A DNA stretch of 64,000 bases, from positions 15,539 to 79,538 of the forward strand of contig JBDGRL010000002.1 in the NCBI GenBank assembly GCA_042218065.1, given 5' to 3'. Below the pieces are notes generated by a model, which was not told where the DNA came from, made no database searches, and saw only the letters and a program-made list of their open reading frames with translations. Each line of letters starts with the position of its first letter. Position 1 is the stretch's first letter. Shown piece by piece: positions 4,192 through 43,683 of this stretch. The DNA is from Candidatus Magasanikiibacteriota bacterium. Lineage in GTDB: Bacteria > Patescibacteriota > Patescibacteriia > Magasanikbacterales > UBA922. The position numbers and the translations under genes are program-made.

Positions 4192-4264
4192 TGTGGATAA
4201 TTCTGTGTGTAACCTCCTTCTAATGTGGATAAATAAGGGTGATTTCCACAATTTCTGTGTATAA
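4192..4264. promoter_or_regulatory. Trio of DnaA-box 9-mers immediately 3' of tRNA-Leu
   Basis: Perfect TGTGGATAA at 4192-4200 and 4224-4232, plus TGTGTATAA at 4256-4264. Confidence 0.4.
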
Positions 4265-4363
4265 CTTGCCCTTAGAAGGCTGGTCATTATCAACAATCTC
4301 TAGATTGTAAAAATGATAAAAGTTTTATATAATTAACCTACTTAATAAATAATTCAAAAAAAT

Positions 4364-13468: not shown

Positions 13469-13681
13469 GTTTGATGTGGATAAATTAATTCTAGGTATAT
13501 TTTAGCAAAAAAATGACGAAGGTAAAGTTTTGTCAAACTATAAGTTATGGATAAACCTGTGGAAAACTTGTGGAGGTTGTGGATATCTCCTTCTAAACCT
13601 ATGTTGAAAACTTGATTTTATTGGTTAATTAATTGTGAATAATTAGTTTTTAAGATTATTTTAGATTACTGTTTTGAAAGA
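13469..13681. promoter_or_regulatory. DnaA-box cluster upstream of dnaA (oriC/dnaA promoter region)
   Basis: Perfect TGTGGATAA at 13475-13483, then TATGGATAA (13545), TGTGGAAAA (13558), TGTGGAGGT (13569) and TGTGGATAT (13578). That is five boxes within about 110 bp. Confidence 0.65.
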
Positions 13682-16785: not shown

Positions 16786-17307
16786 ATGAATATACTGGAT
16801 CAAATCAAGTTAGAAGATAATTTAATAAGACTTTTTAGTCTTTCAGTTATAGCAATTTTTGTCCTAACTGCAGCAAAACCAGCAACAATTACCACAAAAG
16901 CTAAAAATAAAACACCAAAAAAGAACGAAATACATAATTTTAATGGAAATAATCTACCTAAATCTAAACAAAAAGATCCTATAAGGTCTTATTGGGTTGT
17001 AGCCACTGCTTATTCGTCTGAGGTAGGACAAACTGATGATTCACCATGTATACCATCTAAGGCTGATTTTAACCTCTGTGAGCATTACAAAAAGCACAAA
17101 ATAGAGGATACGATAGCTGCCAACTTTCTACCTTTGGGAGCTAAAGTAAAATTCCCCGAGCTTTACGGTGATAAAGTATTTACTGTAAGAGATCGTATGA
17201 ATGAAAGATATAACGGAACTGCTCGTATTGATTTTTGGAAATCTCACACCTCTGAAGCCGAAAACTTCGGTGTCAAAAGTGTAAAAATGGAGATTATAAA
17301 ATACTAA
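16786..17307 (+). CDS. 3D-domain (MltA/YuiC-like) cell-wall-associated protein
   Basis: An N-terminal TM, then VATAYSSEVGQTDDSPC...AANFLPLGAKVKFPELYGDKVFTVRDRM...RIDFW, which matches the 3D-domain pattern. Confidence 0.6.
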   Translation: MNILDQIKLEDNLIRLFSLSVIAIFVLTAAKPATITTKAKNKTPKKNEIHNFNGNNLPKSKQKDPIRSYWVVATAYSSEVGQTDDSPCIPSKADFNLCEHYKKHKIEDTIAANFLPLGAKVKFPELYGDKVFTVRDRMNERYNGTARIDFWKSHTSEAENFGVKSVKMEIIKY

Positions 17308-17349
17308 GATTGCAACAAGCAGGTAAAAATGATAAAATTTACCTGCTAT

Positions 17350-17420
17350 GGCACGGTAGCCAAGTGGTAAGGCAGGGGACTGCAAATCCCCGATCCCGGG
17401 TTCGATTCCCGGTCGTGCCT
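17350..17420 (+). tRNA. tRNA-Cys (anticodon GCA)
   Basis: Acceptor GGCACGG/TCGTGCC, anticodon stem-loop GGGGA-CTGCAAA-TCCCC, T-arm CCCGGGTTCGATTCCCGG; length 71 nt. Confidence 0.85.
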
Positions 17421-17421
17421 C

Positions 17422-17973
17422 AAGATTAAACCGCTTTCTGAAGACCTGGATTTTACCGGACTTACTTCTAGTTCTAATGTAGAATCACTTTTTCTTACAA
17501 CTGTAGATAGGCTAAAGCAAAGGGGTATTACTGCTGAACTAGCAGAATCAAAACACACTTCCGGTGGTTTTTTAGGAGTCTTGTCGGTGAGTCTGTATGA
17601 GCTAAATATAGAGATAAAAGTAGAGGTCTCGCTGCGAGAAAAGAGTGCTAAAAGTGAGATTATAACTATCGCGAATGATTTCATTCCCAGCTATACAATT
17701 ACAGCACTAGCTCAAGAAAAAATTGTAGAAGAAAAGCTGCAGGCTGTGTTTAAAAGAACTAAACCCAGAGATTGGTACGATCTTTATTTTTTACTTCGCT
17801 CTCGGCTGGTTCCTGTAGAACAAAGAGATGTTTTAAAAGATGCCCTAGTAAAACTTAATCAAACAGATATTTCCTTTAGAAAATTGAAATTATTATTACC
17901 TCAAGACCATCATCAGATTTTACAGGATTTTGAGAAAAATTTGTCTCGTGAATTGAAAAGATTTGCAGACTGA
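17422..17973 (+). pseudogene. N-terminally truncated AbiEii/DUF1814-type nucleotidyltransferase toxin gene; the reading frame runs open from the tRNA-Cys 3' end
   Basis: Only the C-terminal part is present (KPRDWYDLYFLLRSRL, the AbiEii C-terminal motif). The frame is open from 17422 directly abutting the tRNA, with no ATG or RBS. The nucleotidyltransferase N-domain is absent. Confidence 0.5.
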
Positions 17974-18169
17974 CATTCTGCTTTGGGTCAAGTTGGCACA
18001 TCCGCTCTGATTTTTCAAACCCCGATCTCTTAATGAATATATTTTTACTACGTATTTAGAGAAGCCTGACTTGGACTCTTTTGAGAAGATAATAGAAAAA
18101 AGCAGAAAGATTGTAGCAAAAAAGATATAGAGAAAGAGGATGTTAAGGAGATTATAAAAGAAGTTAGAG

Positions 18170-18274
18170 ATGAAAATAATTCTTGATACAAATGTAGTTG
18201 TTTCCGGTATATTTTGGTCCAGTCCTCCATTTGAAATGCTTCAAGTTGGAAGAGAAATAGATTTCAGGTTATAA
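18170..18274 (+). pseudogene. Fragment of a PIN-domain toxin gene (first 34 codons only) overlapped by the tail of a decayed upstream antitoxin-like frame
   Basis: MKIILDTNVVVSGIFWSSPPFEMLQVGREIDFRL then stop. A typical PIN N-terminus (DTNVVVS) is truncated after about 34 aa. The upstream frame ...KEDVKEIIKEVRDENNS ends in an ATGA overlap with the toxin start. Confidence 0.5.
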
Positions 18275-18300
18275 TTACAAAAGAAGTTTATAATGAATGC

Positions 18301-18328
18301 TTGACATTTTTTTGATTTATTGTATAAT
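18301..18328 (+). promoter_or_regulatory. Consensus sigma70-type promoter for the DUF4143 ATPase gene
   Basis: TTGACA (18301-18306), a 16-nt spacer, then TATAAT (18323-18328). Confidence 0.5.
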
Positions 18329-18376
18329 TAAGTTGGTTATTTATGGAGTAAGATTATTAATTAGCCTGGTTATTTT

Positions 18377-19645
18377 ATGAATAGTGTTCAATTTATTAAA
18401 AGGGATCTACTTGAAGAACTGAAAGACCACTTATCTGAAAAAGAAATGTCTCTGATAGTCGGCCCCAGACAAGCAGGTAAGACTACCATAATGAGGAAAG
18501 TGCAGTCCCACCTGGAGAAAAACGGACAAAACACTCTGTTTTATGATTTGGATAAGCAGCCAGAGCTGTTTGAAACACAAGAAGAGTTTTTACAGAATCT
18601 CAAACTTGATGCGAACAAACAGAGAACATTCGTATTTTTAGATGAAATTCAACGCAAAAAAAACGCCGGTTTGTTTTTAAAAGGTATATATGACCGTGAT
18701 TTAGACTATAAGTTTATAGTTTCCGGCTCCGGCAGCTTGGAGCTTAAATCCGATGTGCATGAATCCATGGCGGGAAGAAAATTGGTGTTTGAATTGAGTA
18801 CAATATCCTTTCCGGAGTTTGTGAATTTTAAGACTGATTATCAATATGAAAGTCAGCTAGATCAATTTTTTCGCCTCAGAAAGGAAAAAGCTAGACTATT
18901 TTTGAAAGAGTATCTTAATTTTGGCGGTTATCCCCGTGTTGTTCAGAAACAAACAAGAGAACAAAAAAGAAGAATGATTGGTGAAATAGTGGATAGTTAT
19001 TTAAGAAAAGATATAACTGATTTGCTTGGTGTCAGAAAGACCGATAAATTCTCTAAACTGATAAAAATAGTTAGTGACCAAGTAGGTCAACCAATGAATT
19101 ACTCTAAATTAGCCCGTGATCTGCAAATAGACCAAAAAACGATTAAAAATTATATTTATTATGCTGAGGAGACTTTTGTAGTGGATAGAGTAAGACCTTT
19201 TTTTAGAAATAGAAAAAAAGAATTAACTAAAGCACCTGTTCCTTATTTTTTTGATATAGGTTTTAGAAATTATGAGCTAGGACAGTTTGGCAATTTAAGA
19301 ACAAGCAGCGAGTTTGGTATAGCTTTTGAAAACTTGGTGTACAATCAGCTTAAATCTAAGACCAGATTTTCTGCTTATGAAGTAAAATATTGGAGGACCA
19401 AGAACCAAACTGAGGTAGATTTTATTGTGACTTCAAGTCAAAGAAGAGCAGTTCCGATTGAGGTGAAATATAAAAACTTGAAAGAAACCAAAATACCCCG
19501 TTCTTTCAGGAGTTTTCTAAAAAAATATGAACCTGAAAAAGCTTATATCGTCAATCTAAGTCTTAATGAAACCAAGGAAATTGAGGATGTTGAAGTTGAG
19601 TTTATTTCTATCTTTAATTTTTTAGGCAAGTTGATAGTTAGCTAG
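18377..19645 (+). CDS. AAA+ ATPase with a C-terminal DUF4143 domain
   Basis: Walker A GPRQAGKTTIM, Walker B FVFLDEIQ, and a 422-aa two-domain architecture typical of the AAA_14/DUF4143 family. Confidence 0.75.
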   Translation: MNSVQFIKRDLLEELKDHLSEKEMSLIVGPRQAGKTTIMRKVQSHLEKNGQNTLFYDLDKQPELFETQEEFLQNLKLDANKQRTFVFLDEIQRKKNAGLFLKGIYDRDLDYKFIVSGSGSLELKSDVHESMAGRKLVFELSTISFPEFVNFKTDYQYESQLDQFFRLRKEKARLFLKEYLNFGGYPRVVQKQTREQKRRMIGEIVDSYLRKDITDLLGVRKTDKFSKLIKIVSDQVGQPMNYSKLARDLQIDQKTIKNYIYYAEETFVVDRVRPFFRNRKKELTKAPVPYFFDIGFRNYELGQFGNLRTSSEFGIAFENLVYNQLKSKTRFSAYEVKYWRTKNQTEVDFIVTSSQRRAVPIEVKYKNLKETKIPRSFRSFLKKYEPEKAYIVNLSLNETKEIEDVEVEFISIFNFLGKLIVS

Positions 19646-19696
19646 AAGAGGGTGTTTAATACTTAGTACAGTTTTGAGAGCATGCTTTAACTTATC

Positions 19697-19770
19697 CGCG
19701 GCAGTCAAGTGATAAAGCAGGGGGCTCCAAATTTTCGATTAATGTCGGTCGTACCTAAAGATTAAATCGC
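19697..19770 (+). repeat. Degenerate direct repeat of tRNA-Cys (D-loop to 3' end plus about 15 nt of 3' flank); putative distal att site of a decayed island
   Basis: GCAGTCAAGTGATAAAGCAGGGGGCTCCAAATTTTCGATTAATGTCGGTCGTACCTAAAGATTAAATCGC aligns at about 75% with the tRNA-Cys 17358-17434 region, including the flank AAGATTAAA(C/T)CGC. Confidence 0.6.
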
Positions 19771-19810
19771 ACAGAAAACTATGCGGTTTTTGTAGTAAAT
19801 TAAATATAGA

Positions 19811-20221
19811 TTAATTTTCTTTTTGTTCTGCTAATTCTCTAATAAGTTCAGCTTGCTCTTCGCTAAGAAGGTCTTCACTAGCAGTGCCTACTCCACCTGA
19901 CCCTTCCTTATCAAGTCCAAAAGCTTGATTTACTTTATCACCTCTTACAACTATGCTTATATGCTCTTCTCCATTTGTTAATTCTTCTGTTCTAATATCG
20001 AAATTATGGTCTCCAGCATCTGATACTTCTATTCCTTCTCTGTCTGAAACGTCACTACTTTCAAAAATAGCCTCAGCAATACCAGCTTCTTTTATTTTTT
20101 GGTCAATCTCTGGGGCAGACGACTCACCTTCTTGTCCAGATTCTTTATTACACTTTGGACAAGTTTTCCCTTTAGGGGTGCCGTGACTACATGTGGGAGT
20201 GTACCCTTCACCTATAGCCAT
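19811..20221 (-). CDS. Hypothetical acidic protein with an N-terminal Cys/His cluster (zinc-ribbon-like)
   Basis: N-terminus TPTCSHGTPKGKTCPKCN; the rest is acidic and low-complexity. Confidence 0.35.
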   Translation of the reverse strand: MAIGEGYTPTCSHGTPKGKTCPKCNKESGQEGESSAPEIDQKIKEAGIAEAIFESSDVSDREGIEVSDAGDHNFDIRTEELTNGEEHISIVVRGDKVNQAFGLDKEGSGGVGTASEDLLSEEQAELIRELAEQKEN

Positions 20222-20372
20222 AAAATTTTATTAAGAATAAACAACAACTTAATTATATATATATCGATAACTGGTCAAATTAGCTTAGTTGCAAAAAAGC
20301 AAGTTTTAAATTAAAAAGTTTATTCAAAATCCGATTAATGCTATAATCCAACTAAATTTAAAATTGTTATAA

Positions 20373-23069
20373 ATGGACAAAAAAAACTACAAAAACAGAC
20401 TCGTACTCATAGACGGCCATGCCATAGTCCACCGTGCCTATTATGCTCTGCCTCCTATGACTACCAAAGACGGCACTATGGTCAACGCGGTCTATGGTTT
20501 TACCACTATGCTGCTTAAAGTTCTGGAAGATTTGGAGCCGACACACATGGCGCTGGGAGTGGATGTAAAAGGAAAAACTTTTCGTGATGAGATGTATGAA
20601 CAGTATAAGGAACATAGAGAGGAAAAAGACCAGGAGCTGTACGATCAGATACCTATGACTCACAAGATTGCTGAAGCTTTTGATATCCCGGTATATAAAA
20701 AGCAAGGTTTTGAGGCTGATGATATTTTGGGAACTGTAGCCAAACACATCGATGAGCTGGACGGAGAAGATACGGAGGTGATAATAGTTACAGGTGATAA
20801 AGATATGCTACAGTTAGTTGATGAGCGCACCCGTATTGCTTTGATAAAAAAAGGCATAACTAACTTAAAAGTATATGATAGAGATGAGGTAGTTGCGGAA
20901 TATGGGTTTGCTCCTGAAAAGATGATTGATTATAAGGCTCTGAAAGGCGATTCATCAGACAACATACCCGGCATCAGCGGTATCGGAGATAAGCGAGCCA
21001 AGGATTTGATCGATACTATTGGAGGAGTAGATGAGGTGTTGGATCAGATTGATAAGCAAGATAGTAAGCTTTATAAGGAGTTTACTGAAAATATAATCTC
21101 TAAGATAAAAGACGGAACAGAAGATGCACAGATAAGCAAAAAGTTAGCCACAATACGCACTGACGTAGAAGAAACTAATTTTGACTTAGATAAGTGTAAG
21201 CTGGATGAGTTTGACCAACAAAAGATCAGAGATACATTTAAAAAGTTTGAGTTCTTTTCTCTACTAAAGCGTATTCCCGGCGCTGAAAACTTTGATACAT
21301 CCAAAAAGAAGGATGATTTTCTGAAAAACTTGAAAGATATTACAAGAATTACTACTTCAAGTGATTTAAAGCAATTGAAAAAAAAGATAGATAAAAACGG
21401 AAGTTTTGCTTGTAAAGAAGTGTTAAACTCGGAGTCAGTTATAAACTCCAGGGTTGAAGGTTTTGTATGTTTAGTAGATAATCAGCCCTTTTATATAGAT
21501 ATTAATGAGATAAACAGTAAAGAAAAGGTTTTGGATTTATTTGGCAAGGATATAGAGGTAGTAGGACACGATTTGAAGAGATTAGCCAAAACTGTACTAG
21601 ACCAAGGCAAGCCCTTTAGTTCAAAGCTGTTTGATATCAAGGTCGCATCTTATTTGATAAACTCCTCAGCCGACAGCCACAGCTTGGAGGAGATTATCCT
21701 CCGAGAGCTGGAGATAGAAGCTGAAGAGGAAGACAACCAGGATACTCTATTCGGAGAAGACCCGAAGCTGATAGCAGAGAACCTATACTTTTCTCTTAAA
21801 ATAAAAGAAGAATTCAGCGAAAAGCTGGATGAGGTGGATACTGAAAATTTATTCGAGGAGGTGGAGATGAAGTTGATACCTATCTTAGCGAAGATGGAAC
21901 TAAACGGAATTGCTATAGACCGAGACAAGTTTGACGATCTGTCCCAGCAAGTAAAAGAAAAAATAAAACAACTCGAAGAAAAGATTCATGAGCATGCGGG
22001 AGAAAAATTCAATGTAAACTCTACCAAGCAGTTGCGTGAGGTTTTATATGACAAACTTGAGCTTCCGACTGAAAATATAAAAGAAGGCAAGACAGGCTAT
22101 TCCACGGCAGCAAGTGAGCTGGAGAAACTTCGGGGAGAGCATCCGATTGTTGAGCTGATAGAAGAACATCGTGAGCTAGAGAAACTTCGCAATACATATA
22201 TAGATGTACTTCCTACATTAGTAAATGAGAAGACAGGTCGGATTCATACCAGCTTTAACCAAACCGTCACCGCCACCGGCAGACTTTCCAGCTCGGATCC
22301 GAATCTGCAAAATATACCGATACGCTCCGATTTGGGCAAAGAAATACGAAAGGCTTTTGTAGCAGAGAAAGGAGGCAAGCTTTTAGCTGCAGATTATTCT
22401 CAGATTGAGCTGAGGATAGTGGCACATCTGTCGGGAGATGAGAAGTTGATAGATATTTTCTCTAAGAATCAGGATGTACATACCGCTACAGCCGCTGAGA
22501 TTCATGAAGTTGAGCCCGACGAAGTTACGGCTGATATGCGCTCAAAGGCTAAAGAGGTTAATTATGGAGTATTATACGGCATGGGGCCACACGGTATGGC
22601 ACAACGGACGGATATAGACCGAGCGGAAGCCAAAAAGTTTATAGAGCGCTACTTTGAGAAGTTCAGCGGCGTGGAGAGATTTGTAGATAAATCTATCGAA
22701 TATGCTAAGGAGAAGGGTTATGCTGAGACCATGTTTGGACGTAGACGTTATCTACCAGAGCTTGAGTCTGATAACTACCACCTTAGACGTTCAGGCGAGA
22801 GGATGGCGATAAATATGCCGGTGCAGGGCACTCAAGCCGACCTAATCAAGATGGCGATGATTGAGATTGATCAACATATTGAGGATAAATTTAAAGGTGA
22901 TCTTAAAATGTTGCTTCAGGTACACGATGAGCTTGTTTTTGAAATAAATAAAGACGAGATAGACTTGGCCAAAAACATGATAGTAGAACAGATGGAAGAT
23001 ATAATTGATCTGGTTGTTCCGGTGGAGGTTGATGTGGCTGTAGGTGATAGGTGGGGTGAGTTGAAGTAA
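20373..23069 (+). CDS. polA: DNA polymerase I
   Basis: An N-terminal 5'-3' exonuclease domain (LVLIDGHAIVHRAYYALPP), then polymerase motif A DYSQIELR and motif B RSKAKEVNYGVLYG, then motif C VHDELVFE. Length 898 aa. Confidence 0.95.
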   Translation: MDKKNYKNRLVLIDGHAIVHRAYYALPPMTTKDGTMVNAVYGFTTMLLKVLEDLEPTHMALGVDVKGKTFRDEMYEQYKEHREEKDQELYDQIPMTHKIAEAFDIPVYKKQGFEADDILGTVAKHIDELDGEDTEVIIVTGDKDMLQLVDERTRIALIKKGITNLKVYDRDEVVAEYGFAPEKMIDYKALKGDSSDNIPGISGIGDKRAKDLIDTIGGVDEVLDQIDKQDSKLYKEFTENIISKIKDGTEDAQISKKLATIRTDVEETNFDLDKCKLDEFDQQKIRDTFKKFEFFSLLKRIPGAENFDTSKKKDDFLKNLKDITRITTSSDLKQLKKKIDKNGSFACKEVLNSESVINSRVEGFVCLVDNQPFYIDINEINSKEKVLDLFGKDIEVVGHDLKRLAKTVLDQGKPFSSKLFDIKVASYLINSSADSHSLEEIILRELEIEAEEEDNQDTLFGEDPKLIAENLYFSLKIKEEFSEKLDEVDTENLFEEVEMKLIPILAKMELNGIAIDRDKFDDLSQQVKEKIKQLEEKIHEHAGEKFNVNSTKQLREVLYDKLELPTENIKEGKTGYSTAASELEKLRGEHPIVELIEEHRELEKLRNTYIDVLPTLVNEKTGRIHTSFNQTVTATGRLSSSDPNLQNIPIRSDLGKEIRKAFVAEKGGKLLAADYSQIELRIVAHLSGDEKLIDIFSKNQDVHTATAAEIHEVEPDEVTADMRSKAKEVNYGVLYGMGPHGMAQRTDIDRAEAKKFIERYFEKFSGVERFVDKSIEYAKEKGYAETMFGRRRYLPELESDNYHLRRSGERMAINMPVQGTQADLIKMAMIEIDQHIEDKFKGDLKMLLQVHDELVFEINKDEIDLAKNMIVEQMEDIIDLVVPVEVDVAVGDRWGELK

Positions 23070-23112
23070 AATTAGCAACGCTGCTGTAAATAAATAGGAA
23101 ACACCAAAACAA

Positions 23113-23135
23113 AAACCGCCCTCTCGGGCGGTTTT
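23113..23135. terminator. Rho-independent terminator between the convergent polA and doxX genes
   Basis: AACCGCCC-TCTC-GGGCGGTT followed by TTT. Confidence 0.6.
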
Positions 23136-23158
23136 CAGGCTTCGTATTTAGAAAGATT

Positions 23159-23587
23159 TTATTCTTCTTTCATTTTGCAAATTCCACACCAGCTAAAACA
23201 TTCTTTTTTAATTAGCTGCCAGCTTCCTCCACCTAGTGCAGCTAGAGCTATATTAGCTCCTAGCAGTGCAATATCTAGACGTGCCGCTTTAAAACCGGAC
23301 TTTGCCTTCACTGTCAGGATAGCTACTAGCATAATTATAGCTAGTAGTTTTGCAAAGCATCTTAGGTAAACACCTAGAATTAAGGCAATACCACCCAAAA
23401 ACTCTACAATAGCTACTAGGTAAGCCCAGAAAGTTGGTCCGGGTAGGCCGATGCTGCCCATCATACCTACGATAGGGTCGATACCTGTTAATTTAGCCCA
23501 TCCTGTGGCTATAAAAATAGCACCTACTGCAAGCCGCAGCGCCAAAAAGCCTATATTTCTCAGCTTTTCTTCTTTGATTTTACCCAT
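23159..23587 (-). CDS. DoxX family membrane protein
   Basis: A four-TM protein with the DoxX-type N-terminus (LALRLAVGAIFIATGWAKL). Confidence 0.75.
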   Translation of the reverse strand: MGKIKEEKLRNIGFLALRLAVGAIFIATGWAKLTGIDPIVGMMGSIGLPGPTFWAYLVAIVEFLGGIALILGVYLRCFAKLLAIIMLVAILTVKAKSGFKAARLDIALLGANIALAALGGGSWQLIKKECFSWCGICKMKEE

Positions 23588-23630
23588 AAGTATATGGGTT
23601 AAGAATTAACTAGTTTAATTATAGCAAAAT

Positions 23631-24878
23631 TTAATCGTTTTTAAAAACTTTTGGTGAAATATTAGTCAAGTTTCTAAAGCCAAAAGTTCTCAGAGTCCAA
23701 TCTATCACTATTCTTATTTTTCTCACTACTCCCGGCATAAATAGTACATAAGCAGTTCTTCGCAGCCACCAGGCAAGCTTTCCAAACAATTTTAAATCAT
23801 TTAGCCAGGGAAAAACGGCTACTCCGTACCACTCCCCTACCGGCATAAGTCTTCCCTTGGATTTAAATGTAAATTGTTCTATATCGTTGTCTGTAATCTC
23901 GGATGTGATCTGCCTTGCGATGTATTCTCCTTCTTTGTGAGACGCTTCTCCCAGCTGAGGATAAACTTCTTTAGTTTTCGGGTCTTTTATCAGGGCTATA
24001 TCCCCGATCGGATACAGCGACTTGAATTCCAGGTGTTGTAGGTGCTCATTTGTTGGAACCCTGTCTTCTTTTAGGTATTTTTTCGGTAAGTATTTGCTGG
24101 CTTGAGTAGTAAAGCCTGTAGACCAGATAGTAATATCATTCGGCACCTGTTCGTTATTTGATAACTTTACCTGATTGTCGGTTACTTTATTTGCAGAAAC
24201 TTTAGTGTGTATTTCAACCCCTAGATCATTTAACCTTGCTTTAACTTTATTTTGCACTTTTTCACTCATATTACACATAATAGTATCCTGCACTTCAAAT
24301 ATTTGCACCTTCATATTAGTTTCTGGGTACAGTTTTTTGAAGTCATCCTGTTTTAGCTGCGCGATTTCTGCAGCTATCTCCACACCGATATATCCACCTC
24401 CGACAATATTAATATGTAGTTTATCTTGTTGCTGTTCTAGCTTGTTAATGAGTATGCTTTTTAGCTCAAGTGCCTCTTCTAGAGATCTTACATGATGAGT
24501 ATTTTCCTTGGCGCCCTCTACTCCGCAAAAATTAGTAACACTACCTAAAGCCAAAACACAGCGATCATACCTAATAGTACCTATATTTGTCTCTACTTCC
24601 TTTTCTTTAGGGAAGATAGTGCTTACTCTGGCTTGTCTGAACTTATGTCTCGACTTGTAAGTAAGCTCTCTAAGCTGAAGAGTAGCATGGGGCGGGTCAA
24701 CTGCTCCGGTAGCGACCTCATGCAACAATGGAACAAAGGTAAAGTAGTTGTTTTTATCAATCAGAGTTATCTCTTTATTTATGTTTTGCTTTTTAAATTT
24801 CTTCTTGAGACTGCGAAAAGCTTCAAGACCGGCAATACCTCCTCCTAGAATAGCCACGTCTGTTTGAATATCGCTCAT
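23631..24878 (-). CDS. ndh: Type II NADH:quinone oxidoreductase (NDH-2)
   Basis: An N-terminal FAD Rossmann fold VAILGGGIAGLEA, then LIDKNNYFTFVPLLHEVATG, a second NAD-binding GxGxxG (IVGGGYIGVE), and a C-terminal membrane-anchoring region. Confidence 0.85.
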   Translation of the reverse strand: MSDIQTDVAILGGGIAGLEAFRSLKKKFKKQNINKEITLIDKNNYFTFVPLLHEVATGAVDPPHATLQLRELTYKSRHKFRQARVSTIFPKEKEVETNIGTIRYDRCVLALGSVTNFCGVEGAKENTHHVRSLEEALELKSILINKLEQQQDKLHINIVGGGYIGVEIAAEIAQLKQDDFKKLYPETNMKVQIFEVQDTIMCNMSEKVQNKVKARLNDLGVEIHTKVSANKVTDNQVKLSNNEQVPNDITIWSTGFTTQASKYLPKKYLKEDRVPTNEHLQHLEFKSLYPIGDIALIKDPKTKEVYPQLGEASHKEGEYIARQITSEITDNDIEQFTFKSKGRLMPVGEWYGVAVFPWLNDLKLFGKLAWWLRRTAYVLFMPGVVRKIRIVIDWTLRTFGFRNLTNISPKVFKND

Positions 24879-24964
24879 ATTATCAAATGTAAATTAGACT
24901 AGGATAACTATAGCATTTTTAGGGTTTTTTTAAAATGAACGTACACCTATTATTCAGATCTTGT

Positions 24965-25186
24965 TTAGGGCTTCTGTAGTTTGGCAATAAAGGAGGTAAG
25001 CTTTCCGTCTTGTGTTAACTGCAAAGATTTTTCCATATTAAAGTTTTGTTTTATTTTAGGTTTGAATTTCTCTGGCAGTTTTTCTTGAATTTCTGTTTTA
25101 TTTCTTTTGATTTTATTTAATACTTTTTTGTAAGTTTTAGATAAATGTGTGTTTAGATCTTCAAAATTTTCTAATCTGTTTAACAC
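24965..25186 (-). CDS. Hypothetical small basic protein
   Basis: Complete ORF of 73 aa; no motif recognised. Confidence 0.3.
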   Translation of the reverse strand: MLNRLENFEDLNTHLSKTYKKVLNKIKRNKTEIQEKLPEKFKPKIKQNFNMEKSLQLTQDGKLTSFIAKLQKP

Positions 25187-25481
25187 TATCGATGAAGATG
25201 TTGGGTTTTTTAATTAAATTGACGTCATTCTCAGACAGCCATTTGTTTATCTTCCTTTCTATGTCTTCTCAGACGGAAGGGTAGTCCAGACACCCTTTGA
25301 ACATTTTGACTTTCATTTTTTCCTCCTGTTTTACTACACCTTACCACATAACACCCGAACGGTTTAACAGACGGCATTACGTCTGAAATTATGTGGGTTT
25401 GTTAGAGAACGATAATTATTACAAATATTTTTTGTAACAAGTATCGTTTTCTAACTTGAAAATCGGAGTGCGGCGTCAAGT

Positions 25482-25575
25482 GAGTGCAGTACTTGACGCC
25501 GCATGTACTTTGGTCTCTACTTGAAGCACAGCTTCAAGTAGAGACACCGGACTTACGTGTCCAGCGGTTTTTGAG
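25482..25575. other. Tandem perfect GC-rich hairpins immediately 3' of the GC-rich gene (putative terminators or structured element)
   Basis: GCGGCGTCAAGT-gagtgcagt-ACTTGACGCCGC is a 12-bp perfect stem. It is followed by GGTCTCTACTTGAAG-cacag-CTTCAAGTAGAGAC and then CCGGAC-ttacgt-GTCCAG. Confidence 0.5.
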
Positions 25576-25577
25576 AG

Positions 25578-26747
25578 TTAACTCTCTTGTTTTGGCGCGG
25601 ATTCGACAGCATCTTCGGCTCTGTTCTGCCAATCACCGGCATGAACCACGCGCTCAACGGCAAGTTCTTTCGCTTTCGTGGCTGTAAACTCACCATTGGC
25701 GAAGTCACGCGCCAACTCTTCCTTGTCGAACACGAACATGGCGTGTCCGTAGTTCGGAGAGTCGACCACGTAGACAGGTTCGCCGTCTTTTTTGCCGATG
25801 AAGAGCAGACGTTCGCCGAGACTGACCTCGACGTCGTGACATTTATCGAAGATGTCACCGTCGAAACATTCGCCCTTGACCTTCTCGATCCGTTCTTTGT
25901 TTCGATTTCGTTTCCTTTGCTTTTTTACTTGCTCTCGGACAAGTTCGTTGGAGTTGATCTCATCGAGAAACTTGCCCTCAATCGCTTCCAGAAACAGCCC
26001 CCAGTTTTCCTCTTTGATTGGTTGGGCGAAACGGATGTCCTGATGCTTTTTCTGCCACTCGTGTCCATGAGGGCGTTCAGGCGGGATTTCTATCTCACGG
26101 TTCGTCATTTTTGAACCAAACCAACGAAAGGGTTGCTCGAATTTTCTAGCGAGCACATCCCCCTCCGAAAGATTGCGAGCCTGCTCGAAAGTAATGGTTT
26201 CGTCCAGGATCGTAGTGGCACTACAATAAGGCTCCAAAATCTCCGTTCTTAAAAGCAGGTCTCCAATAATCTCTTTATCCAGATCAGCCAACTCCATGAT
26301 TTTATCAAGTCTTCCATATCTATAGAATCCATCTAAGAGGGATGAGCTTTCGTCTTTCTCTTTCCAACTATTTACCGACCCATCCCAGCACATAACAGGT
26401 ACTTTTTTGGATCTAAAAGTAAAATGGCTTCCATCTTCAGTTTGGATGTAAACTACCTCTACTGTCGTAGGAAATGAAATATTAGGGTCTCTAGGCATGA
26501 ATCCCCGTGGATTACACTCATCACTTGGACGATCATAAAACACTGTTCTCGGCTGATCCGAATCGGAAAAGTATACTTGTTTAAGGTATTGCTGCAACTT
26601 TCGATGGGTCTCCTCCTTTACATCTACTTCTGGTACAGGCATCATCGAAGGATCGATCCCCTTTTTTGTAAAAATTTTCTCAGTATAGATTCTTTTTGAT
26701 TTAACTGTAAGAGTTTCCAAAAATCTCTTTTTGTTGTCGTTGCTCAT
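25578..26747 (-). CDS. Hypothetical protein encoded by a compositionally anomalous (GC-rich 3' half) gene
   Basis: 389-aa complete ORF. The 3' two-thirds of the gene (about 25580-26250) is visibly about 50% GC against a local background near 30%. Overlapping ORFs on both strands are typical of high-GC DNA. No family was recognised. Confidence 0.45.
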   Translation of the reverse strand: MSNDNKKRFLETLTVKSKRIYTEKIFTKKGIDPSMMPVPEVDVKEETHRKLQQYLKQVYFSDSDQPRTVFYDRPSDECNPRGFMPRDPNISFPTTVEVVYIQTEDGSHFTFRSKKVPVMCWDGSVNSWKEKDESSSLLDGFYRYGRLDKIMELADLDKEIIGDLLLRTEILEPYCSATTILDETITFEQARNLSEGDVLARKFEQPFRWFGSKMTNREIEIPPERPHGHEWQKKHQDIRFAQPIKEENWGLFLEAIEGKFLDEINSNELVREQVKKQRKRNRNKERIEKVKGECFDGDIFDKCHDVEVSLGERLLFIGKKDGEPVYVVDSPNYGHAMFVFDKEELARDFANGEFTATKAKELAVERVVHAGDWQNRAEDAVESAPKQES

Positions 26748-27019
26748 CTTCCTCTCCTCGTTTGAGAAGAATTCAAAACCGCGGGTTCAGCTGTCTGAAC
26801 CGCTTCCAGAGCGGAATAGCATACTTGAGAAAAGTACACTACTCCGCTCTGGATTTTTAAAGAACAATATCATCAATATTGACATCGATGACATTACATT
26901 TAAACATAATTATTAAAGTTTGTCAAGCCTGTCATTGATTTTTTGATGACAATTTGTAATAATATATTTGACTTAAAGTAGGTGTTGGAAGGCTAATTTA
27001 TCATAATTTAATTGACAAA

Positions 27020-28180
27020 ATGAAAACTTTAAGAAAAAATCTTCAAAAACTCGGCTTTTCAAAAAATAAGATCGACGTTTATCTTGCTTTGTATGAAGAA
27101 GGTGAAGCAAAAGCTAGAAAGATTATTGATAAAACGGATTTACATAGGAATATTGTCTATACTGAGCTAAATGAGTTGATTGATAAAAATTTAGTTGCAA
27201 AAAAGGAGGAAAGCGGAGTTGCGGTGTTCCAGGTGCTTGCCCCACAAAGACTAATGCAAGAGATAAAAAGGAAAGAAGAGATAGCAAAAAACACTATAGA
27301 AGAGTTGCAGACTATCAATGAACCACAAAAACAGGAAATTGTTATACGAGAAGGCAAGGAAGAGCTTCGGGACATTTTGTATGAAATGCATGAAAATAGA
27401 GATGAAAATGAGGAGTGGAAAATATTAGGAGCCTCAGAAAAATGGTTTGAAAAAAATATTTTATCTCAAGATGATTACAATGAGCTGATCAAAAAACAAG
27501 AAAAAAAAGGTTTTAGAAAAAAAATAATTAGTTCCAGTTCAATTAAAGATTTTCCCGAGAGAAGTAATACTGAGTTTAAATTAGTACCCAGCTTAACTAC
27601 TGAAGATAATGAAGTACATGTTTTTGGAGATAAGGTAATTCATACTGTTTTGGTTGAACCTTATACGGTAATTGAGTTTTCAAACAAAAAATTAGTTAAT
27701 TCCTATGATAGTTTCTTCAACAGTCTTTGGAGCCAAGAAGTCATAACTTACAGAGGCTGGGATGAAATTAAAAATATGTATATGGATGTAGTTTTACCTT
27801 CATTGGAGTCAGGGGATGATAGTTATTTGTTCACGACTTACCCCCAACAAGAAAAGGAAGCTGAGATAGGAAGTAGAGTTTGGGATGAGTTTAATGAAAA
27901 ATGGAAAGAAAAAGGTTTAAATAAGAAATTTATCTTTTTTTCAGAAGAAGAGGCAGAAATAACAAAAGAGAGACACCGGGAAACCGGGATAAGAAAAAAA
28001 TGTGAGTATAAAACTCTACCTAAGGAATATTTTTCTGTCTTATCCATAGTAATTTACGGTGATAAATATGTGGCGCTAACTGATCTTTCCGAACCTGTTG
28101 CTACTTTGTATTCGAATGAAAATATAATCGAAAGTTATAAAAGTCATTTTAAGATGTTGTGGAATATTGCAGAAAAGTAA
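27020..28180 (+). CDS. TrmB-family (winged-helix) transcriptional regulator with a large C-terminal domain
   Basis: The N-terminus LQKLGFSKNKIDVYLALYEEGEAKARKIIDKTDLHRNIVYTELNELIDKNLV matches the TrmB N-terminal HTH pattern. Confidence 0.55.
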   Translation: MKTLRKNLQKLGFSKNKIDVYLALYEEGEAKARKIIDKTDLHRNIVYTELNELIDKNLVAKKEESGVAVFQVLAPQRLMQEIKRKEEIAKNTIEELQTINEPQKQEIVIREGKEELRDILYEMHENRDENEEWKILGASEKWFEKNILSQDDYNELIKKQEKKGFRKKIISSSSIKDFPERSNTEFKLVPSLTTEDNEVHVFGDKVIHTVLVEPYTVIEFSNKKLVNSYDSFFNSLWSQEVITYRGWDEIKNMYMDVVLPSLESGDDSYLFTTYPQQEKEAEIGSRVWDEFNEKWKEKGLNKKFIFFSEEEAEITKERHRETGIRKKCEYKTLPKEYFSVLSIVIYGDKYVALTDLSEPVATLYSNENIIESYKSHFKMLWNIAEK

Positions 28181-33180: not shown

Positions 33181-33265
33181 TGTGGAAAACTTGTTGATAA
33201 GTTAAAAAAATTAGTGGATAAATTGTGTATAAGTTCTTAAAATCTGTTGATAAAGCTGTGGATAA
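33181..33265. promoter_or_regulatory. Dense cluster of six DnaA-box-like 9-mers (second oriC-like or DnaA-titration element)
   Basis: TGTGGAAAA (33181), TGTTGATAA (33192), AGTGGATAA (33213), TGTGTATAA (33224), TGTTGATAA (33246) and a perfect TGTGGATAA (33257-33265), all on the same strand within 85 bp. AT-rich DNA follows. Confidence 0.5.
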
Positions 33266-39423: not shown

Positions 39424-40005
39424 ATGATTTTATCTGATCGCGATATAAAAGAAGAAATGGATGAAGGTAATATTGTTATTGATCCTTTCAATGAAGAAAA
39501 TCTGCAGCCGGCATCTTATGATCTGCATTTGGACAAGCATTTTCTAGTTTTTGATGAGATTCAACATCATGTTATCGATCCTAAGCAGAATCTAGATGAT
39601 AAAATGAAAGAAGTAGAGATCGACGAAGATGATGCTTTTATCATTCATCCGAATGAGTTTGCACTGGGCATGGTCAAGGAGGTGACTGGTGTTTCTGATA
39701 AAATTGCAGGGAGGCTGGAAGGTAAAAGTTCTGTAGGCCGGCTTGGGTTGTTAATTCATGTGACGGCTGGTTTTTTAGATCCTGGAAATGAGCTGAAGTT
39801 GACTCTAGAGCTTCACAACACAGCTCCGATGCCAATTAAATTGTATTATAATATGCCGATAGCACAGATTGCCTTCGAAAAGCTTAGTGATTCTTGTTCT
39901 GACCCTTACTCAGAAGGAAGAGAGGAAGATAAATATTACGGCGATATGAAGCCCAAAGCTTCACAGATGTTTAAAAACTTTGATGAAGATCAGGGATGGG
40001 TATAA
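39424..40005 (+). CDS. dcd: dCTP deaminase
   Basis: The N-terminus MILSDRDIKEEMDEGNIVIDPF is the classic Dcd start, and the C-terminal beta-barrel (dUTPase-like) fold pattern is present. Confidence 0.85.
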   Translation: MILSDRDIKEEMDEGNIVIDPFNEENLQPASYDLHLDKHFLVFDEIQHHVIDPKQNLDDKMKEVEIDEDDAFIIHPNEFALGMVKEVTGVSDKIAGRLEGKSSVGRLGLLIHVTAGFLDPGNELKLTLELHNTAPMPIKLYYNMPIAQIAFEKLSDSCSDPYSEGREEDKYYGDMKPKASQMFKNFDEDQGWV

Positions 40006-40541
40006 AACTAGGTATTGTAGGAAAAATAGGCAGTGGAAAAACTACTGCAGCTAAGTATCTACAACAGGCACATAATTTTAAAACTATTAAGTTTTCTGGA
40101 TTTGTTCGAGATATTTTAGACAGGATGCATTTACAGCAGAATCGGGATAATATGTCCAAATTATCAACTTCTCTTAGAGAAAGTTTTGGTAAGGACATAT
40201 TTAGTCGTGTGCTCATAAAAGAATCAAAAAACAAGGATAGAGTGATATTAGAAGGCGCCAGAAAACAAGAGGATTTATCCAATTTTAAAGACAGAGAAGA
40301 TTTTTATTTACTTGCCATAAGTGCCGACCAGGAAATTAGATATAATAGAGTTTCATCTCGTAATGAGAATGAAGATGATAAAGGTAAAACTTTTGAAGAA
40401 TTTAAACAAGACGAGAAAAAAGCTACTGAAACTGAAATTGCTTCTTTAATGAAACTAGCAGATTATACAATAAGCAATAATGGAACATTGGCAGAATTTC
40501 AAGAAAAATTAGATAAATTAATAGCTAAATTAAATGAATGA
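39996..40541 (+). CDS. P-loop nucleotide kinase (CoaE/dNMP-kinase-like) embedded in the pyrimidine cluster
   Basis: Walker A MGIKLGIVGKIGSGKTTAAKYL, a 181-aa size, and a lid-like region. Its position between dcd and dut suggests a (d)NMP kinase role. Confidence 0.55.
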   Translation: MGIKLGIVGKIGSGKTTAAKYLQQAHNFKTIKFSGFVRDILDRMHLQQNRDNMSKLSTSLRESFGKDIFSRVLIKESKNKDRVILEGARKQEDLSNFKDREDFYLLAISADQEIRYNRVSSRNENEDDKGKTFEEFKQDEKKATETEIASLMKLADYTISNNGTLAEFQEKLDKLIAKLNE

Positions 40542-41433
40542 GAAATTTAGAGAAAATAGGTATGTAGCAAGTTCGGAATCTGAATATACTGAATTAACAA
40601 GAGAAAATAGAGAAGAGCTAAAAGAAGAATTAAAAGAATCTTTGCCTGAATTAAAGAAACTTTTCTTGGAGGAACTTGAATCTTGTCCTTTTATAAGTGA
40701 TAATTTGATTGATAATATTAAAGATAGGGTTGACGAAGTAAATTTTAATCTAATTAATGAAATTCAAAAAGAACATACAGGATTGTTTAGGGGTATTTAT
40801 GATTTTATAACTGATGAAATTAAACTGAAAGAAAAGGCTAACAAAGGTACTATTATTCATGAATTACTGCACGCTGTAAGTAGTAGATTAATGAACAAAA
40901 AATCCCTAGAAGAAGGAGAGTTTAAAGTATTAGTCGGGGGTCTTAGTCCTGGAATAAAGTTAGATTTAGAAAAAGTAGATTTTGATTCAGAAGATGAAAT
41001 TAAAAATTTTTTTGAACATCCCGAATATGTAAGATGGCTAGAAGAAGGGGTTACTGATAAGTTTACCAGAGATATTTTTGGAGAAGAGGGGAGTAAAAAT
41101 TATGACCCTTATGTTTATTTACTAGAAGCTATACAAGAAGAGGCTGGAATTTCAGACGAGGAACTGGCAGAGGCATACTTTAAACCTTTTAAAAAATCTG
41201 AACAAAGTGAATATAATACAGAGGCAATTAGTAATTTCTTCAGTGCTATAAATGAGCGTTATACTTCTGGAATTATTTTTTATATACATGTAGTTTTAGG
41301 ATATGAATATACTCCTAAAGAAAGAGAAGAAATTGATAGTATTGATAAAGCGAAAGAATTTATTGAAGAAGTAGAAAAGGAATATAGTGATCGAAGTTTA
41401 ACTGATTTGGTAGAAGATTTGAAGCAACAGTGA
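40534..41433 (+). CDS. Hypothetical acidic protein with an HExxH motif
   Basis: A 299-aa Glu-rich protein; TIIHELLHAVSS contains HExxH; otherwise unrecognised. Confidence 0.35.
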   Translation: MNEKFRENRYVASSESEYTELTRENREELKEELKESLPELKKLFLEELESCPFISDNLIDNIKDRVDEVNFNLINEIQKEHTGLFRGIYDFITDEIKLKEKANKGTIIHELLHAVSSRLMNKKSLEEGEFKVLVGGLSPGIKLDLEKVDFDSEDEIKNFFEHPEYVRWLEEGVTDKFTRDIFGEEGSKNYDPYVYLLEAIQEEAGISDEELAEAYFKPFKKSEQSEYNTEAISNFFSAINERYTSGIIFYIHVVLGYEYTPKEREEIDSIDKAKEFIEEVEKEYSDRSLTDLVEDLKQQ

Positions 41434-41456
41434 AGCTAATTTAATAAAAGGTCTAT

Positions 41457-41882
41457 ATGAAAGTTAAAGTAAAAAAACTAAAAGGAGAAGCAAAAATTCC
41501 CAGCTTTGCGCATGAAGGTGATGCAGGAATGGATATTTATTCGACAGAGGATAAAGTAATCACCCCAAAAAACAGGGAGACGATTGAGTTGGGTTTCGCA
41601 ATGCAGTTTCCGTCAGATTACATGGTTATTTTTAAAGATAGAAGCAGTTTGGCTTCGGAGTATGGGGTTCATACTTTAGCGGGAGTTATAGACTCGGGGT
41701 ATAGAGGTGAGTATAAAGCAGTATTGGTTAATTTGGGGGATGAAAGTTTTGAGGTTGAAACAGGACAGAAAGTAGGGCAGATGTTATTTTTACCAAGACC
41801 TGAAATAGAGGTAGAACAAGTAGAAGAATTATCAGATTCTATTCGAGGAGAAGGAGGGTTTGGAAGCACAGGTAAGTTTTAA
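41457..41882 (+). CDS. dut: dUTP diphosphatase (trimeric dUTPase)
   Basis: Motifs AGMDIYS, GVIDSGYRGE and the C-terminal RGEGGFGSTG (motif V). Confidence 0.9.
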   Translation: MKVKVKKLKGEAKIPSFAHEGDAGMDIYSTEDKVITPKNRETIELGFAMQFPSDYMVIFKDRSSLASEYGVHTLAGVIDSGYRGEYKAVLVNLGDESFEVETGQKVGQMLFLPRPEIEVEQVEELSDSIRGEGGFGSTGKF

Positions 41883-41891
41883 TTAAATAAT

Positions 41892-43673
41892 ATGCAAGAA
41901 TACTCAGACAAAGAGCATAAAGCTTTACTTAATTTTGTAACAAGCACGGATTCAAATATTTACGCAGTAAAGAATTTACGTCCAGAAGTTTTTGGTGCTT
42001 TTGGTTCCTTCTTTTCGCGCAGCCCGAAAGATGTACGTGATCATATATTGGATGCAGTTAAAGGTGAAATTCGAGGTTACGAGATGGAGGGTGGAGAAGA
42101 AAGATTGAATAAATTAGCTACAAGCTATGAATTTCTACAAAAAAGATCAAAACTAGACTCTGGTGAAGACAGTGGAGGTATTAAGCAAGAGTTGAAAGAT
42201 ATTTTGAATAAAAAACGAGGGGTTAGAGCTGAGCTTGAAGCTTCTATTTTTGAACCACCAATGAAGGCTTTAGAGTCTGGTTTAGAGAAATCTCAGTCTT
42301 TTTTTGAAAAGTATTATGGAACTTATGGTCACAAATCTATTGCAAATACTGTTTGGATTTCATTTGTGGCAAATGATGTCAGTCAACTTTTTGCCCGAAA
42401 ACTGGCTGATGACCAACTTGCATTTTTTATTGAACAATCCACACGTTTTGTCGAATTTGAAGATAATTATTACAAGGATCCTAGAATTATGGAAAGTGAA
42501 TATAGCGATCTCTATAATGATACCTTAGAAACTATGATTGAATACTATAACAAATTTTATGAGCTAGCTAATAATTTCTACCAAGAAAAAATACCATTTA
42601 ACGACTGGCTAGACCAACAATCAGATAGGGTTAAAGAAAAGTCTGATAGCTATCAGGAAAGAAAATATGAAAGAGAACTAAATGGAAAAGCTTTGGATAT
42701 CGCAAGATTTTTGTTGCCTCAAGCTATAAAAACTAATTTAGCGTGGATCCTAGACGCTAGAAGTACGGAGTTTGATATAGCAAGCTGGAAGGGGCACCCA
42801 TTGTCCGAGATACAAGAATCAGCTGAAAAAATAGAACAAGCTGGCGGAGAAATTGCACCTTCTTTGCTTAAATACACAGAAAAAAATGATTTTTATGAAG
42901 AAAAGTTGCATGAATATGGTGGTGATTTAGAATTAGACTTGGAAGATAAAGAGATTGAAAAAGGGGTAGAAATTGTATCTACTCCCGAAGACTGCTTTGA
43001 GAAAGTGGTAGCACACATCTTAAAGCAAAATAATATAGGTAAATTTAGTCAGTTTTTCCAAAAAGCGAAAAATATGACTTATGATGAAAAGCTAGATATT
43101 TTAGAGCGTACAGTAAAAAATAGAGGTGAATACGATGAGTGGGTGGGAGCAAATGAGGAGATAGATTTAGAAAAAATCGTGGTAGAGATTAAAACTGATG
43201 TGGGAGCACTGAGGGATATTAGAAGACATCAAAAAAATGATAGAGGAGAGCATAGATATTCGCTAGATATGGGGTATTATCGTCCTGATGTAGTTGATAA
43301 AATGAACAAAGAAGCCCAAAATTTATTCGATAAAACTATGGATATTGCACATGAAGCTGAGAAAGAAATTAGAAAAGACTTCCCTTTTGCGGTTCAGTAC
43401 TTGATTCCTATGGCATCCATGACAACTATTACTATGAGTATGGGGTTCGATCAGTTGCAATACTTTATCTACACTAGGTCAACTCCAGAAGGTAATTTTT
43501 CTTATCGAGAAGATACATTTAATTTAACAGAAGCATTAGTAAAGAAATTTCCTTGGTTGTTGGGAATGAAAGAATACCCTGAAGATAAGGACATCAAAGA
43601 AGTTTATGATAATTGTAGTTGGCAAGATTTGTTTATCTCTTTAAGTACTGACGAGACTGGTTTACATACTTAA
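41892..43673 (+). CDS. Tandem-duplicated ThyX-like (flavin-dependent thymidylate synthase fold) protein with non-canonical catalytic motifs
   Basis: The first-half segment GHKSIANTVWISFVANDVSQLFARKLADDQLAFFIEQSTRF aligns with the ThyX core [41 protein letters not shown], but ADD replaces RHR. The second half has VEIVSTPED...IVVEIKTDVGALRDIRRHQKNDRGEHRYS, with RHQ in place of RHR and the Ser position not conserved. Length is 593 aa against about 220-250 for canonical ThyX. Confidence 0.5.
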   Translation: MQEYSDKEHKALLNFVTSTDSNIYAVKNLRPEVFGAFGSFFSRSPKDVRDHILDAVKGEIRGYEMEGGEERLNKLATSYEFLQKRSKLDSGEDSGGIKQELKDILNKKRGVRAELEASIFEPPMKALESGLEKSQSFFEKYYGTYGHKSIANTVWISFVANDVSQLFARKLADDQLAFFIEQSTRFVEFEDNYYKDPRIMESEYSDLYNDTLETMIEYYNKFYELANNFYQEKIPFNDWLDQQSDRVKEKSDSYQERKYERELNGKALDIARFLLPQAIKTNLAWILDARSTEFDIASWKGHPLSEIQESAEKIEQAGGEIAPSLLKYTEKNDFYEEKLHEYGGDLELDLEDKEIEKGVEIVSTPEDCFEKVVAHILKQNNIGKFSQFFQKAKNMTYDEKLDILERTVKNRGEYDEWVGANEEIDLEKIVVEIKTDVGALRDIRRHQKNDRGEHRYSLDMGYYRPDVVDKMNKEAQNLFDKTMDIAHEAEKEIRKDFPFAVQYLIPMASMTTITMSMGFDQLQYFIYTRSTPEGNFSYREDTFNLTEALVKKFPWLLGMKEYPEDKDIKEVYDNCSWQDLFISLSTDETGLHT

Positions 43674-43683
43674 AAATAATTTA

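Follow-up and report, generated by a model that had tools for sequence, protein, structure and literature searches.

Our analysis concerns a 64,000-nucleotide stretch of the genome of a Candidatus Magasanikiibacteriota bacterium (contig JBDGRL010000002.1, positions 15,539 to 79,538; hereafter "the window", whose numbering we use throughout), and in particular the DNA between its tRNA-Cys gene and polA. This DNA contains a 2.3-kb segment that is a lineage-specific insertion, bracketed by direct repeats derived from the tRNA gene. With a probability of roughly 60%, the segment is what remains of horizontally acquired DNA, which integrated at this site and was subsequently reshaped by a deletion and by the nested insertion of a further cassette. 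It provides a clean and small case of a streamlined genome of the Candidate Phyla Radiation (CPR) that gains defence genes and then erodes them. A single hotspot, a few kb from dnaA, contains a presumed attachment segment in duplicate together with two toxin genes, both of them broken, and a candidate defence gene that is intact. Our results do not change the current understanding of tRNA-targeted integration.

An insertion between tRNA-Cys and polA

In the window, the genes follow one another in the order dnaN(-), dnaA(-), PBP1A(-), an open reading frame (ORF) of 173 amino acids (aa) (+), tRNA-Cys(+), the 2.3-kb segment, a 136-aa ORF(-), polA(+) and doxX(-). Through polA we located the orthologous loci of four syntenic relatives, whose polA is 81% (L008) or 67% (L009, L010 and L011) identical to that of the window. 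They are the closest relatives available; the collections that we searched contain none with a polA identity above 90%. All four loci consist of PBP1A(-), an ORF of 173-178 aa, tRNA-Cys, optionally a small ORF, and then polA and doxX. Their tRNA-Cys is single. A second copy is missing from all four, and so are abiEii, the PIN gene and the ATPase described below. This comparison of empty sites had been set beforehand as the refuting test for the idea of an island at this locus, and the idea survived.

The more distant relatives of PolA are Magasanikbacteria. Across this group the spacer between tRNA-Cys and polA varies from 33 nt, in the more distant L006 and L007, to 1.7 kb (L002, L017 and L018). 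A duplicated tRNA-Cys is found at none of the 12 other Magasanikbacteria loci that we examined with tRNA-Cys upstream of polA, and tRNA-derived repeats are absent from the spacers just mentioned (L002, L006, L007, L017 and L018) as well as from those of L003, L005, L009, L011, L019 and L020.

That the 2.3 kb are the inserted part follows from what lies on either side of the repeats. Three features define these flanks:

17310-17338, + strand: ancestral tRNA-Cys promoter, TTGCAA-17-TAAAAT and a TG extension, from a promoter scan
19811-20221, - strand: acidic ORF of 136 aa, ancestral right flank outside the insertion, no family match
20373-23069, + strand: polA, the conserved right-hand anchor for locating orthologous loci

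On the left, the layout TTGaAa...TGnTAnAnT is kept upstream of tRNA-Cys in L008, L009 and L011; hence, the intact tRNA retains its ancestral 5' context. On the right, the 136-aa ORF occupies the place that small ORFs on the minus strand take in L008 and L011. We base this positional orthology on the intergenic DNA between the small ORF and polA, which is conserved across the window, L008 and L011, and not on the similarity of the proteins, which is weak (18-24%). Since the promoter lies to the left of the intact tRNA and the conserved DNA between the 136-aa ORF and polA lies to the right of the second copy, the ancestral flanks are outside the repeats and the 2.3 kb between them are an insertion.

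The locus is probably within a few kb of the replication origin, because the cumulative GC skew reaches its minimum at about 16.8-17.2 kb, where the coding strand also switches, and DnaA boxes are clustered at 13475-13642, upstream of dnaA.

Spacers in other genomes are occupied by small hypothetical ORFs without a Pfam match (L002/L017/L018, 8260-9988; L020, 154-1516; L005, 5280-5840; L003, 9577-9943), and the tRNA-Cys-polA spacer may be a general hotspot of gene gain in Magasanikbacteria. A candidate 3' remnant of tRNA-Cys in L008 (9332-9346) was rejected, as its similarity is not significant (z=1.4).

The direct repeat

The repeat consists of an intact and a decayed copy of the same segment, and a terminator follows the decayed one:

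17350-17421, + strand: intact tRNA-Cys(GCA), left repeat copy and attL in the integration model (ARAGORN and Rfam)
17354-17434, + strand: left repeat block, made up of positions 5-72 of the tRNA and the following 13 nt of its 3' flank (TCAAGATTAAACCGC)
19699-19770, + strand: decayed copy of tRNA-Cys, positions 5-72 plus the 13-nt flank, attR in the integration model
19768-19785: hairpin terminator CGCACAG-AAAA-CTATGCG with a T run, directly 3' of the decayed copy (terminator scan)

The intact gene matches the Rfam tRNA model with 65.1 bits (E=4.9e-13), and its sequence is identical to that of the tRNA-Cys of L009. The second copy, which an earlier note on this DNA had reported downstream of the intact gene, is real. 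It lies 2.35 kb downstream, is about 80% identical to tRNA-Cys and aligns to it with a local score of 56, against 17.8±1.8 (maximum 26, z≈21) for shuffles of the tRNA-polA interval. The second-best match to tRNA-Cys in the 64-kb window is another tRNA with a score of 26. The alignment falls into two gap-free blocks, one of 41 nt with 78% identity (17354-17394 vs 19699-19739) and one of 25 nt with 88% identity (17410-17434 vs 19746-19770), which are parted where the decayed copy has lost 9 nt of its T arm.

The limits of the repeat had to be redrawn. It was thought to begin at the D-loop, to include about 15 nt of 3' flank, and to share just the 3' part of the tRNA. We find instead that the copy starts at position 5 of the acceptor stem, that the shared flank measures 13 nt, and that the repeat thus covers almost the whole tRNA. 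Beyond these limits there is no significant similarity, either upstream into the tRNA promoter (p=0.52) or downstream of the block (p=0.17). The repeat block is sharply bounded.

The decayed copy is called a tRNA by neither ARAGORN nor Rfam (E≤10). It lacks tRNA positions 1-4, its T arm is shorter by 9 nt, and its anticodon is CCA. Substitutions affect 12 of the 66 gap-free positions, nine of them towards A/T. The 13-nt flank is peculiar to this genome, and the tRNA-Cys flanks of the relatives differ from it. Together with the tRNA-Cys sequence of this clade, which the copy carries, this flank indicates that the copy goes back either to the resident gene or to an attachment segment that matched it. 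The same two properties disfavour an independent, unrelated tRNA pseudogene, which the earlier note had named as part of its refuting condition.

The acceptor-stem pair 3:70 of tRNA-Cys (17352/17419) is C:G in the window and in L009, and T:A in L008 and L011. At position 70 (19755), an A is also present in the decayed copy. One could take this as a weak hint in favour of integration, with the right copy retaining the original 3' end of the chromosomal gene, but simple G>A decay accounts for the A equally well.

More can be said about the terminator. In each of L008, L009 and L011 a hairpin terminator stands directly 3' of tRNA-Cys, and the hairpin at 19768-19785 is probably the original terminator of the gene. 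The left repeat copy retains just the first three stem bases (CGC) of this hairpin.

The functional tRNA-Cys is now without a terminator of its own (17422-17980), and the terminator stands after the decayed copy. Transcription of tRNA-Cys probably reads through into the abiEii remnant.

Two broken toxin genes and an intact ATPase-nuclease gene

Between the two copies lie, from left to right, the remains of a toxin gene, a stub of a second one and a complete gene with its promoter:

17435-17973, + strand: remnant of abiEii that corresponds to codons 60-238 of an AbiEii toxin of 238 aa (PF08843, PADLOC)
18170-18290, + strand: PIN_3-like toxin stub of about 40 codons with a frameshift near 18262 (translations; weak match to PF13470)
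18287-19696, + strand: single-gene PDC-S01 cassette of 1.4 kb, right end undefined
18301-18328, + strand: cassette promoter TTGACA-16-TATAAT, 12 of 12 consensus positions (promoter scan)
18377-19645, + strand: coding sequence of the ATPase-nuclease, 422 aa, AAA_14 and DUF4143, intact

The reading frame of the abiEii remnant is open from the base right after the tRNA (17422-17973) and runs for 183 codons without a stop. Its identification as a truncated AbiEii is confirmed by matches to PF08843 (1.7e-16, 61 bits with a cut-off of 22.5, profile positions 33-212 of 238) and to the PADLOC AbiEii profile (2e-17). Full-length AbiEii homologues have 238-242 aa, and the best of them, the intact P0121, is 83% identical in amino acids over residues 60-238 and has a partner ORF upstream. 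The fragment in the window lacks the first 59 codons, including the FKGGTAL / GG(T/S) motif. There is no adjacent abiEi, as the tRNA directly abuts the fragment, and a tblastn search with the upstream ORF of L012 finds no match in the window. A search within the 64 kb for abiEi, for the missing N-terminus of abiEii and, among the scanned ORFs of at least 110 aa, for integrases returned none of the three.

How the fragment came to lie next to the tRNA can be read from the junction. Nucleotide homology between the fragment and the intact, 83%-identical abiEii of L012 (a 951-nt contig from SRR18572992) begins at 17435, at a CGC microhomology; the cargo thus begins 14 nt past the end of tRNA-Cys. 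The junction reads ...AGATTAAACCGC|TTTCTGAAGAC in the window, ...CACCTCGC|TTTTCTGAAGAC in the intact abiEii of L012, and ...AGATTAAATCGC|ACAGAAAAC in the right repeat copy. Since a join at such a microhomology is typical of illegitimate deletions, we read the left edge of the cargo as a deletion scar, which joins the tRNA flank at +13 to codon 60 of abiEii. It is not an integrase or att boundary. The left repeat copy ends at +13, at this scar.

The scar is also comparatively young. Relative to the intact homologue of L012, the ratio of nonsynonymous to synonymous substitution rates (dN/dS) of the fragment is 0.15. If the fragment had been drifting for as long as the tRNA copy, we would expect about five stop codons, and there are none among the 183 codons. 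Low dN/dS and the lack of stops imply that abiEii was truncated comparatively recently, after the decay of the tRNA copy.

The second toxin gene is harder to recognize. With the frameshift corrected, a 48-aa peptide matches PF13470 over positions 1-46 of 115 (E=0.0019), with 19.4 bits where the cut-off is 27; the uncorrected 34-aa ORF has no family match. A PIN stub, as described earlier, is hence a tentative assignment. As for the antitoxin tail that was attached to it, the peptides upstream of the stub match no family; judging from the translations, 18041-18172 may be the 3' remnant of an antitoxin gene. The PIN reading frame ends where the homology of the ATPase cassette begins (~18287). 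Because homology to the cassette of a sister lineage (L013, below) starts at this end of the frame, it was probably the cassette that truncated the PIN gene.

The ATPase gene had been described as intact and as having its own consensus promoter, and both points hold. Its product matches PF13173 (2.5e-29, 102 bits) and PF13635 (1.1e-41, 143 bits), both above the cut-off, as well as the PADLOC profile PDC-S01 (PDLC04789; 3.1e-84, residues 7-393). All of its motifs are intact: Walker A (GPRQAGKT), Walker B (FVFLDE) and D...ExK (EVDFIV...IEVKYK). PDC-S01 is a very common candidate defence gene, among the commonest in prokaryotes, and has not been validated (PMC12988326). It consists of an ATPase fused to a PD-(D/E)XK nuclease and has been transferred repeatedly across domains (PMC12988326; PMC3424549), and it has been assigned to the PD-(D/E)XK nuclease superfamily (PMC3424549). 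In our islet, it is the sole gene that looks functional today, and its sequence makes it a candidate for a single-gene anti-phage defence.

The closest relative of the ATPase is P0202, with 70% identity. It is encoded on L013 (Logan SRR28304478), which belongs to a sister Magasanikbacterium (polA C-terminus 84% and DoxX 77% identical). There, the cassette (569-2171) is placed after the terminator of doxX and next to the stop codon of polA, at a site that is a 90-nt spacer in the window and empty in L008. The promoter regions of the two cassettes are homologous from window position ~18287. We find no convincing terminal inverted or direct repeats around the L013 cassette, nothing tRNA-like in the cargo relatives L012, L013 and L014, and no paralogue of the ATPase in the rest of the window. 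As a sister lineage has the same type of cassette at a different site, the ATPase is a separate unit of promoter and gene, and the cargo is composite. Hence, the picture of one old and eroded island holds in so far as the segment is a remnant; it fails in that the cargo has more than one origin and the truncation of abiEii postdates the decay of the tRNA copy. A unit of 1.4-1.6 kb, consisting of promoter and gene and present at different intergenic sites, also makes PDC-S01 a defined object to clone and test.

Other homologues of the ATPase, with 50-55% identity, come from Nanohaloarchaea, Howlettbacteria, Omnitrophica and Paceibacteria. After two Logan hits, the best named relatives are those of the Nanohaloarchaea (DPANN archaea; ~53% identity), which suggests that the gene has been exchanged across domains between two groups of ultra-small episymbionts.

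A probable history: integration, nested insertion and deletion

Most likely, these features arose in four steps. First, a circular element with a tRNA-Cys-like attachment segment would have entered tRNA-Cys by a single crossover, most probably a site-specific one catalysed by the element's own integrase, and the shared segment would have been duplicated in the process. The left copy would have kept the chromosomal promoter and stayed a working tRNA. The right copy, left with the chromosomal terminator, would have ceased to function and decayed with a bias towards A/T. Second, the element would have brought cargo that included an AbiE pair (abiEi/abiEii) and a PIN-type toxin-antitoxin pair. Third, the PDC-S01 cassette would have inserted independently and cut off the PIN gene. 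Fourth, and comparatively recently, the deletion at the CGC microhomology would have joined codon 60 of abiEii to the flank of the tRNA and removed abiEi, the N-terminus of abiEii and the DNA to their left, presumably including the integrase. The appealing aspect of this scheme is that a single crossover yields the direct repeats, the insert, and the placement of the promoter on the left and the terminator on the right in one step. What we infer is that a circular intermediate and an integrase took part, and in which order the second and third steps occurred; it is the geometry of the locus, the classical one of integration at tRNA genes, that suggests an integrase. Of the integrase-made tRNA island proposed in the earlier note, the lineage-specific insertion and the decayed tRNA repeat that closes it stand, and the left edge as an att boundary does not.

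Several observations weigh against this explanation. No ORF or fragment of a recombinase is left in 17422-19698, and no tyrosine or serine recombinase, integrase or transposase is found among the scanned window ORFs of at least 110 aa (a Pfam scan of 40 further ORFs together with the gene tables, which make up the plausible genes of the window); in this respect the earlier note was right. Our searches turned up neither an intact relative of the element nor a phage or plasmid with this attachment segment. A repeat that starts at tRNA position 5 exceeds most att identity blocks in tRNA genes. The GC content of the segment (0.28-0.39) does not clearly set it apart from its flanks (about 0.30-0.40; ~0.35 nearby). 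The tRNA copy looks older than the abiEii fragment, so that at least some of the cargo may have come in later than the duplication. Finally, the scar of illegitimate recombination at the left edge and the entry of the L013 cassette without long repeats mean that an integrase is not strictly required.

The searches behind these statements cover several collections. The exact 30-mer at the 3' end of tRNA-Cys has 0 matches in viral contigs and 0 in metagenome contigs, and with blastn the 2.3-kb insert has no match among the phages of GenBank or the plasmids of PLSDB. In the literature on tRNA islands in CPR bacteria we found nothing specific.

Exact 22-mer matches, covering the T arm and the 3' end of the acceptor, exist in two IMG/VR contigs (L015, 3440-3461; L016, 2106-2127), both high in GC and without a full tRNA. 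They may be the attP of phages of unrelated hosts. We rejected the two contigs as the source element, as they are unrelated to this clade.

Alternative explanations

Could the locus have arisen without any integrase? Slippage or template switching might have produced a local duplicate of a segment of 81 bp (tRNA position 5 to +13, perhaps originally longer). Cassettes with toxin-antitoxin and defence genes would then have gathered between the copies by illegitimate recombination, and the copy without a promoter would have decayed. The one junction that can be read is indeed a microhomology join of 3-4 nt, and the sister lineage has its PDC-S01 cassette at another intergenic site without an integrase or a long repeat. 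That the island and the scanned ORFs hold no integrase remnant, that the repeat covers nearly the whole tRNA, and that the cargo appears younger than the repeat would also be expected. However, local duplication needs a rare, short duplication followed by at least two independent insertions exactly between its copies, which is less parsimonious, and a duplicated tRNA-Cys occurs at 0 of the 12 other Magasanikbacteria tRNA-Cys/polA loci that we examined. We consider this course of events possible, if on balance rather unlikely.

A more far-reaching idea is that PDC-S01 genes are self-contained mobile cassettes, which enter intergenic DNA beside terminator hairpins or tRNA genes without a recombinase, perhaps by means of their own PD-(D/E)XK nuclease. 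The duplication of tRNA-Cys would then be a by-product of insertion by break and repair and not the work of an integrase. In sister lineages, cassettes with 70% identity do occupy two different sites that flank polA. One of these sites adjoins a terminator and the other adjoins the tRNA copy with its terminator, and the sole readable junction is a microhomology join. Yet the insertion in L013 left no long duplication, and we think this idea improbable.

Hardly better, and in our view slightly worse, is the suggestion that the decayed copy is a foreign tRNA pseudogene, carried in with cargo such as the ATPase cassette, and not a duplicate of the resident site. The copy does follow directly 3' of that cassette, which ends 51 nt upstream, and its anticodon differs (CCA). 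However, it resembles the tRNA-Cys of this clade and not that of distant Magasanikbacteria, and its 13-nt flank is unique to this genome. Neither the L013 cassette nor the loci L012 and L014 contain anything tRNA-like, and the A/T-biased substitutions are as expected from a decaying resident sequence.

Chance similarity or an assembly artefact can be dismissed, as nothing more than the low complexity of an A/T-rich genome speaks for it, the alignment stands far above both the shuffles and the next match (56 vs 26), and an independent Logan assembly (L001), 100% identical across window 17218-27645, shows that the region is no artefact. We therefore return to horizontally acquired DNA, integrated and then eroded, as the best explanation of the segment.

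Other features of the window

DnaA-box-like 9-mers (TTATCCACA, at most one mismatch) occur 44 times in the window, where 18±4 are expected. They form three clusters (13475-13642, 4192-4295 and 33181-33265), with five upstream of dnaA, four just after tRNA-Leu, and six after tRNA-Arg in a regular spacing of 11/21 nt.

Further to the right, at 39424-44873, lies a compact cluster for deoxynucleoside triphosphate (dNTP) metabolism, which comprises dCTP deaminase, a small kinase, dUTPase, Thy1 (ThyX), DHFR and thymidylate kinase. Its Thy1 (ThyX) protein is unusually long (593 aa) and has two matched stretches.

Relation to known systems

The segment is an ordinary remnant of a tRNA-anchored island. 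Like P4-type islands, integrative and conjugative elements, and tRNA-integrated prophages, it is inserted immediately 3' of a tRNA gene, its flanking direct repeats consist of tRNA sequence, of which one side has the intact gene and the opposite side an incomplete copy without function, and it is missing from the orthologous loci of relatives. Its cargo of toxin-antitoxin and defence genes is typical of such islands as well. It differs from them in that 2.3 kb are left without an integrase or mobility gene, in that the repeat comprises tRNA positions 5-72 plus 13 nt and not only the 3' third, in that a microhomology deletion has left its scar at the inner left edge, and in its host, a member of the CPR (Magasanikbacteria).

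Repeats of similar extent are known from the integrative plasmids of actinomycetes. In SLP1 and pSAM2, the blocks of identity between attP and attB span most or all of the tRNA and continue past its 3' end. These plasmids encode int and xis and are demonstrably mobile, and we know of no sequence relationship between them and the islet.

The abiEii remnant can be compared to the AbiE system, a type IV toxin-antitoxin and abortive infection system that consists of AbiEi and AbiEii. The 183-codon fragment is clearly AbiEii. In contrast to the complete system, it is without its first 59 residues, its abiEi partner, and an evident start or promoter; it is a remnant and no working system.

The ATPase-nuclease agrees with PDC-S01 (COG1373) in its full-length match, its two domains and its intact motifs, and it shares the patchy distribution across domains (PMC12988326). 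Structurally, nothing sets it apart. What our locus adds is the behaviour of PDC-S01 as a cassette, at two intergenic sites in sister lineages.

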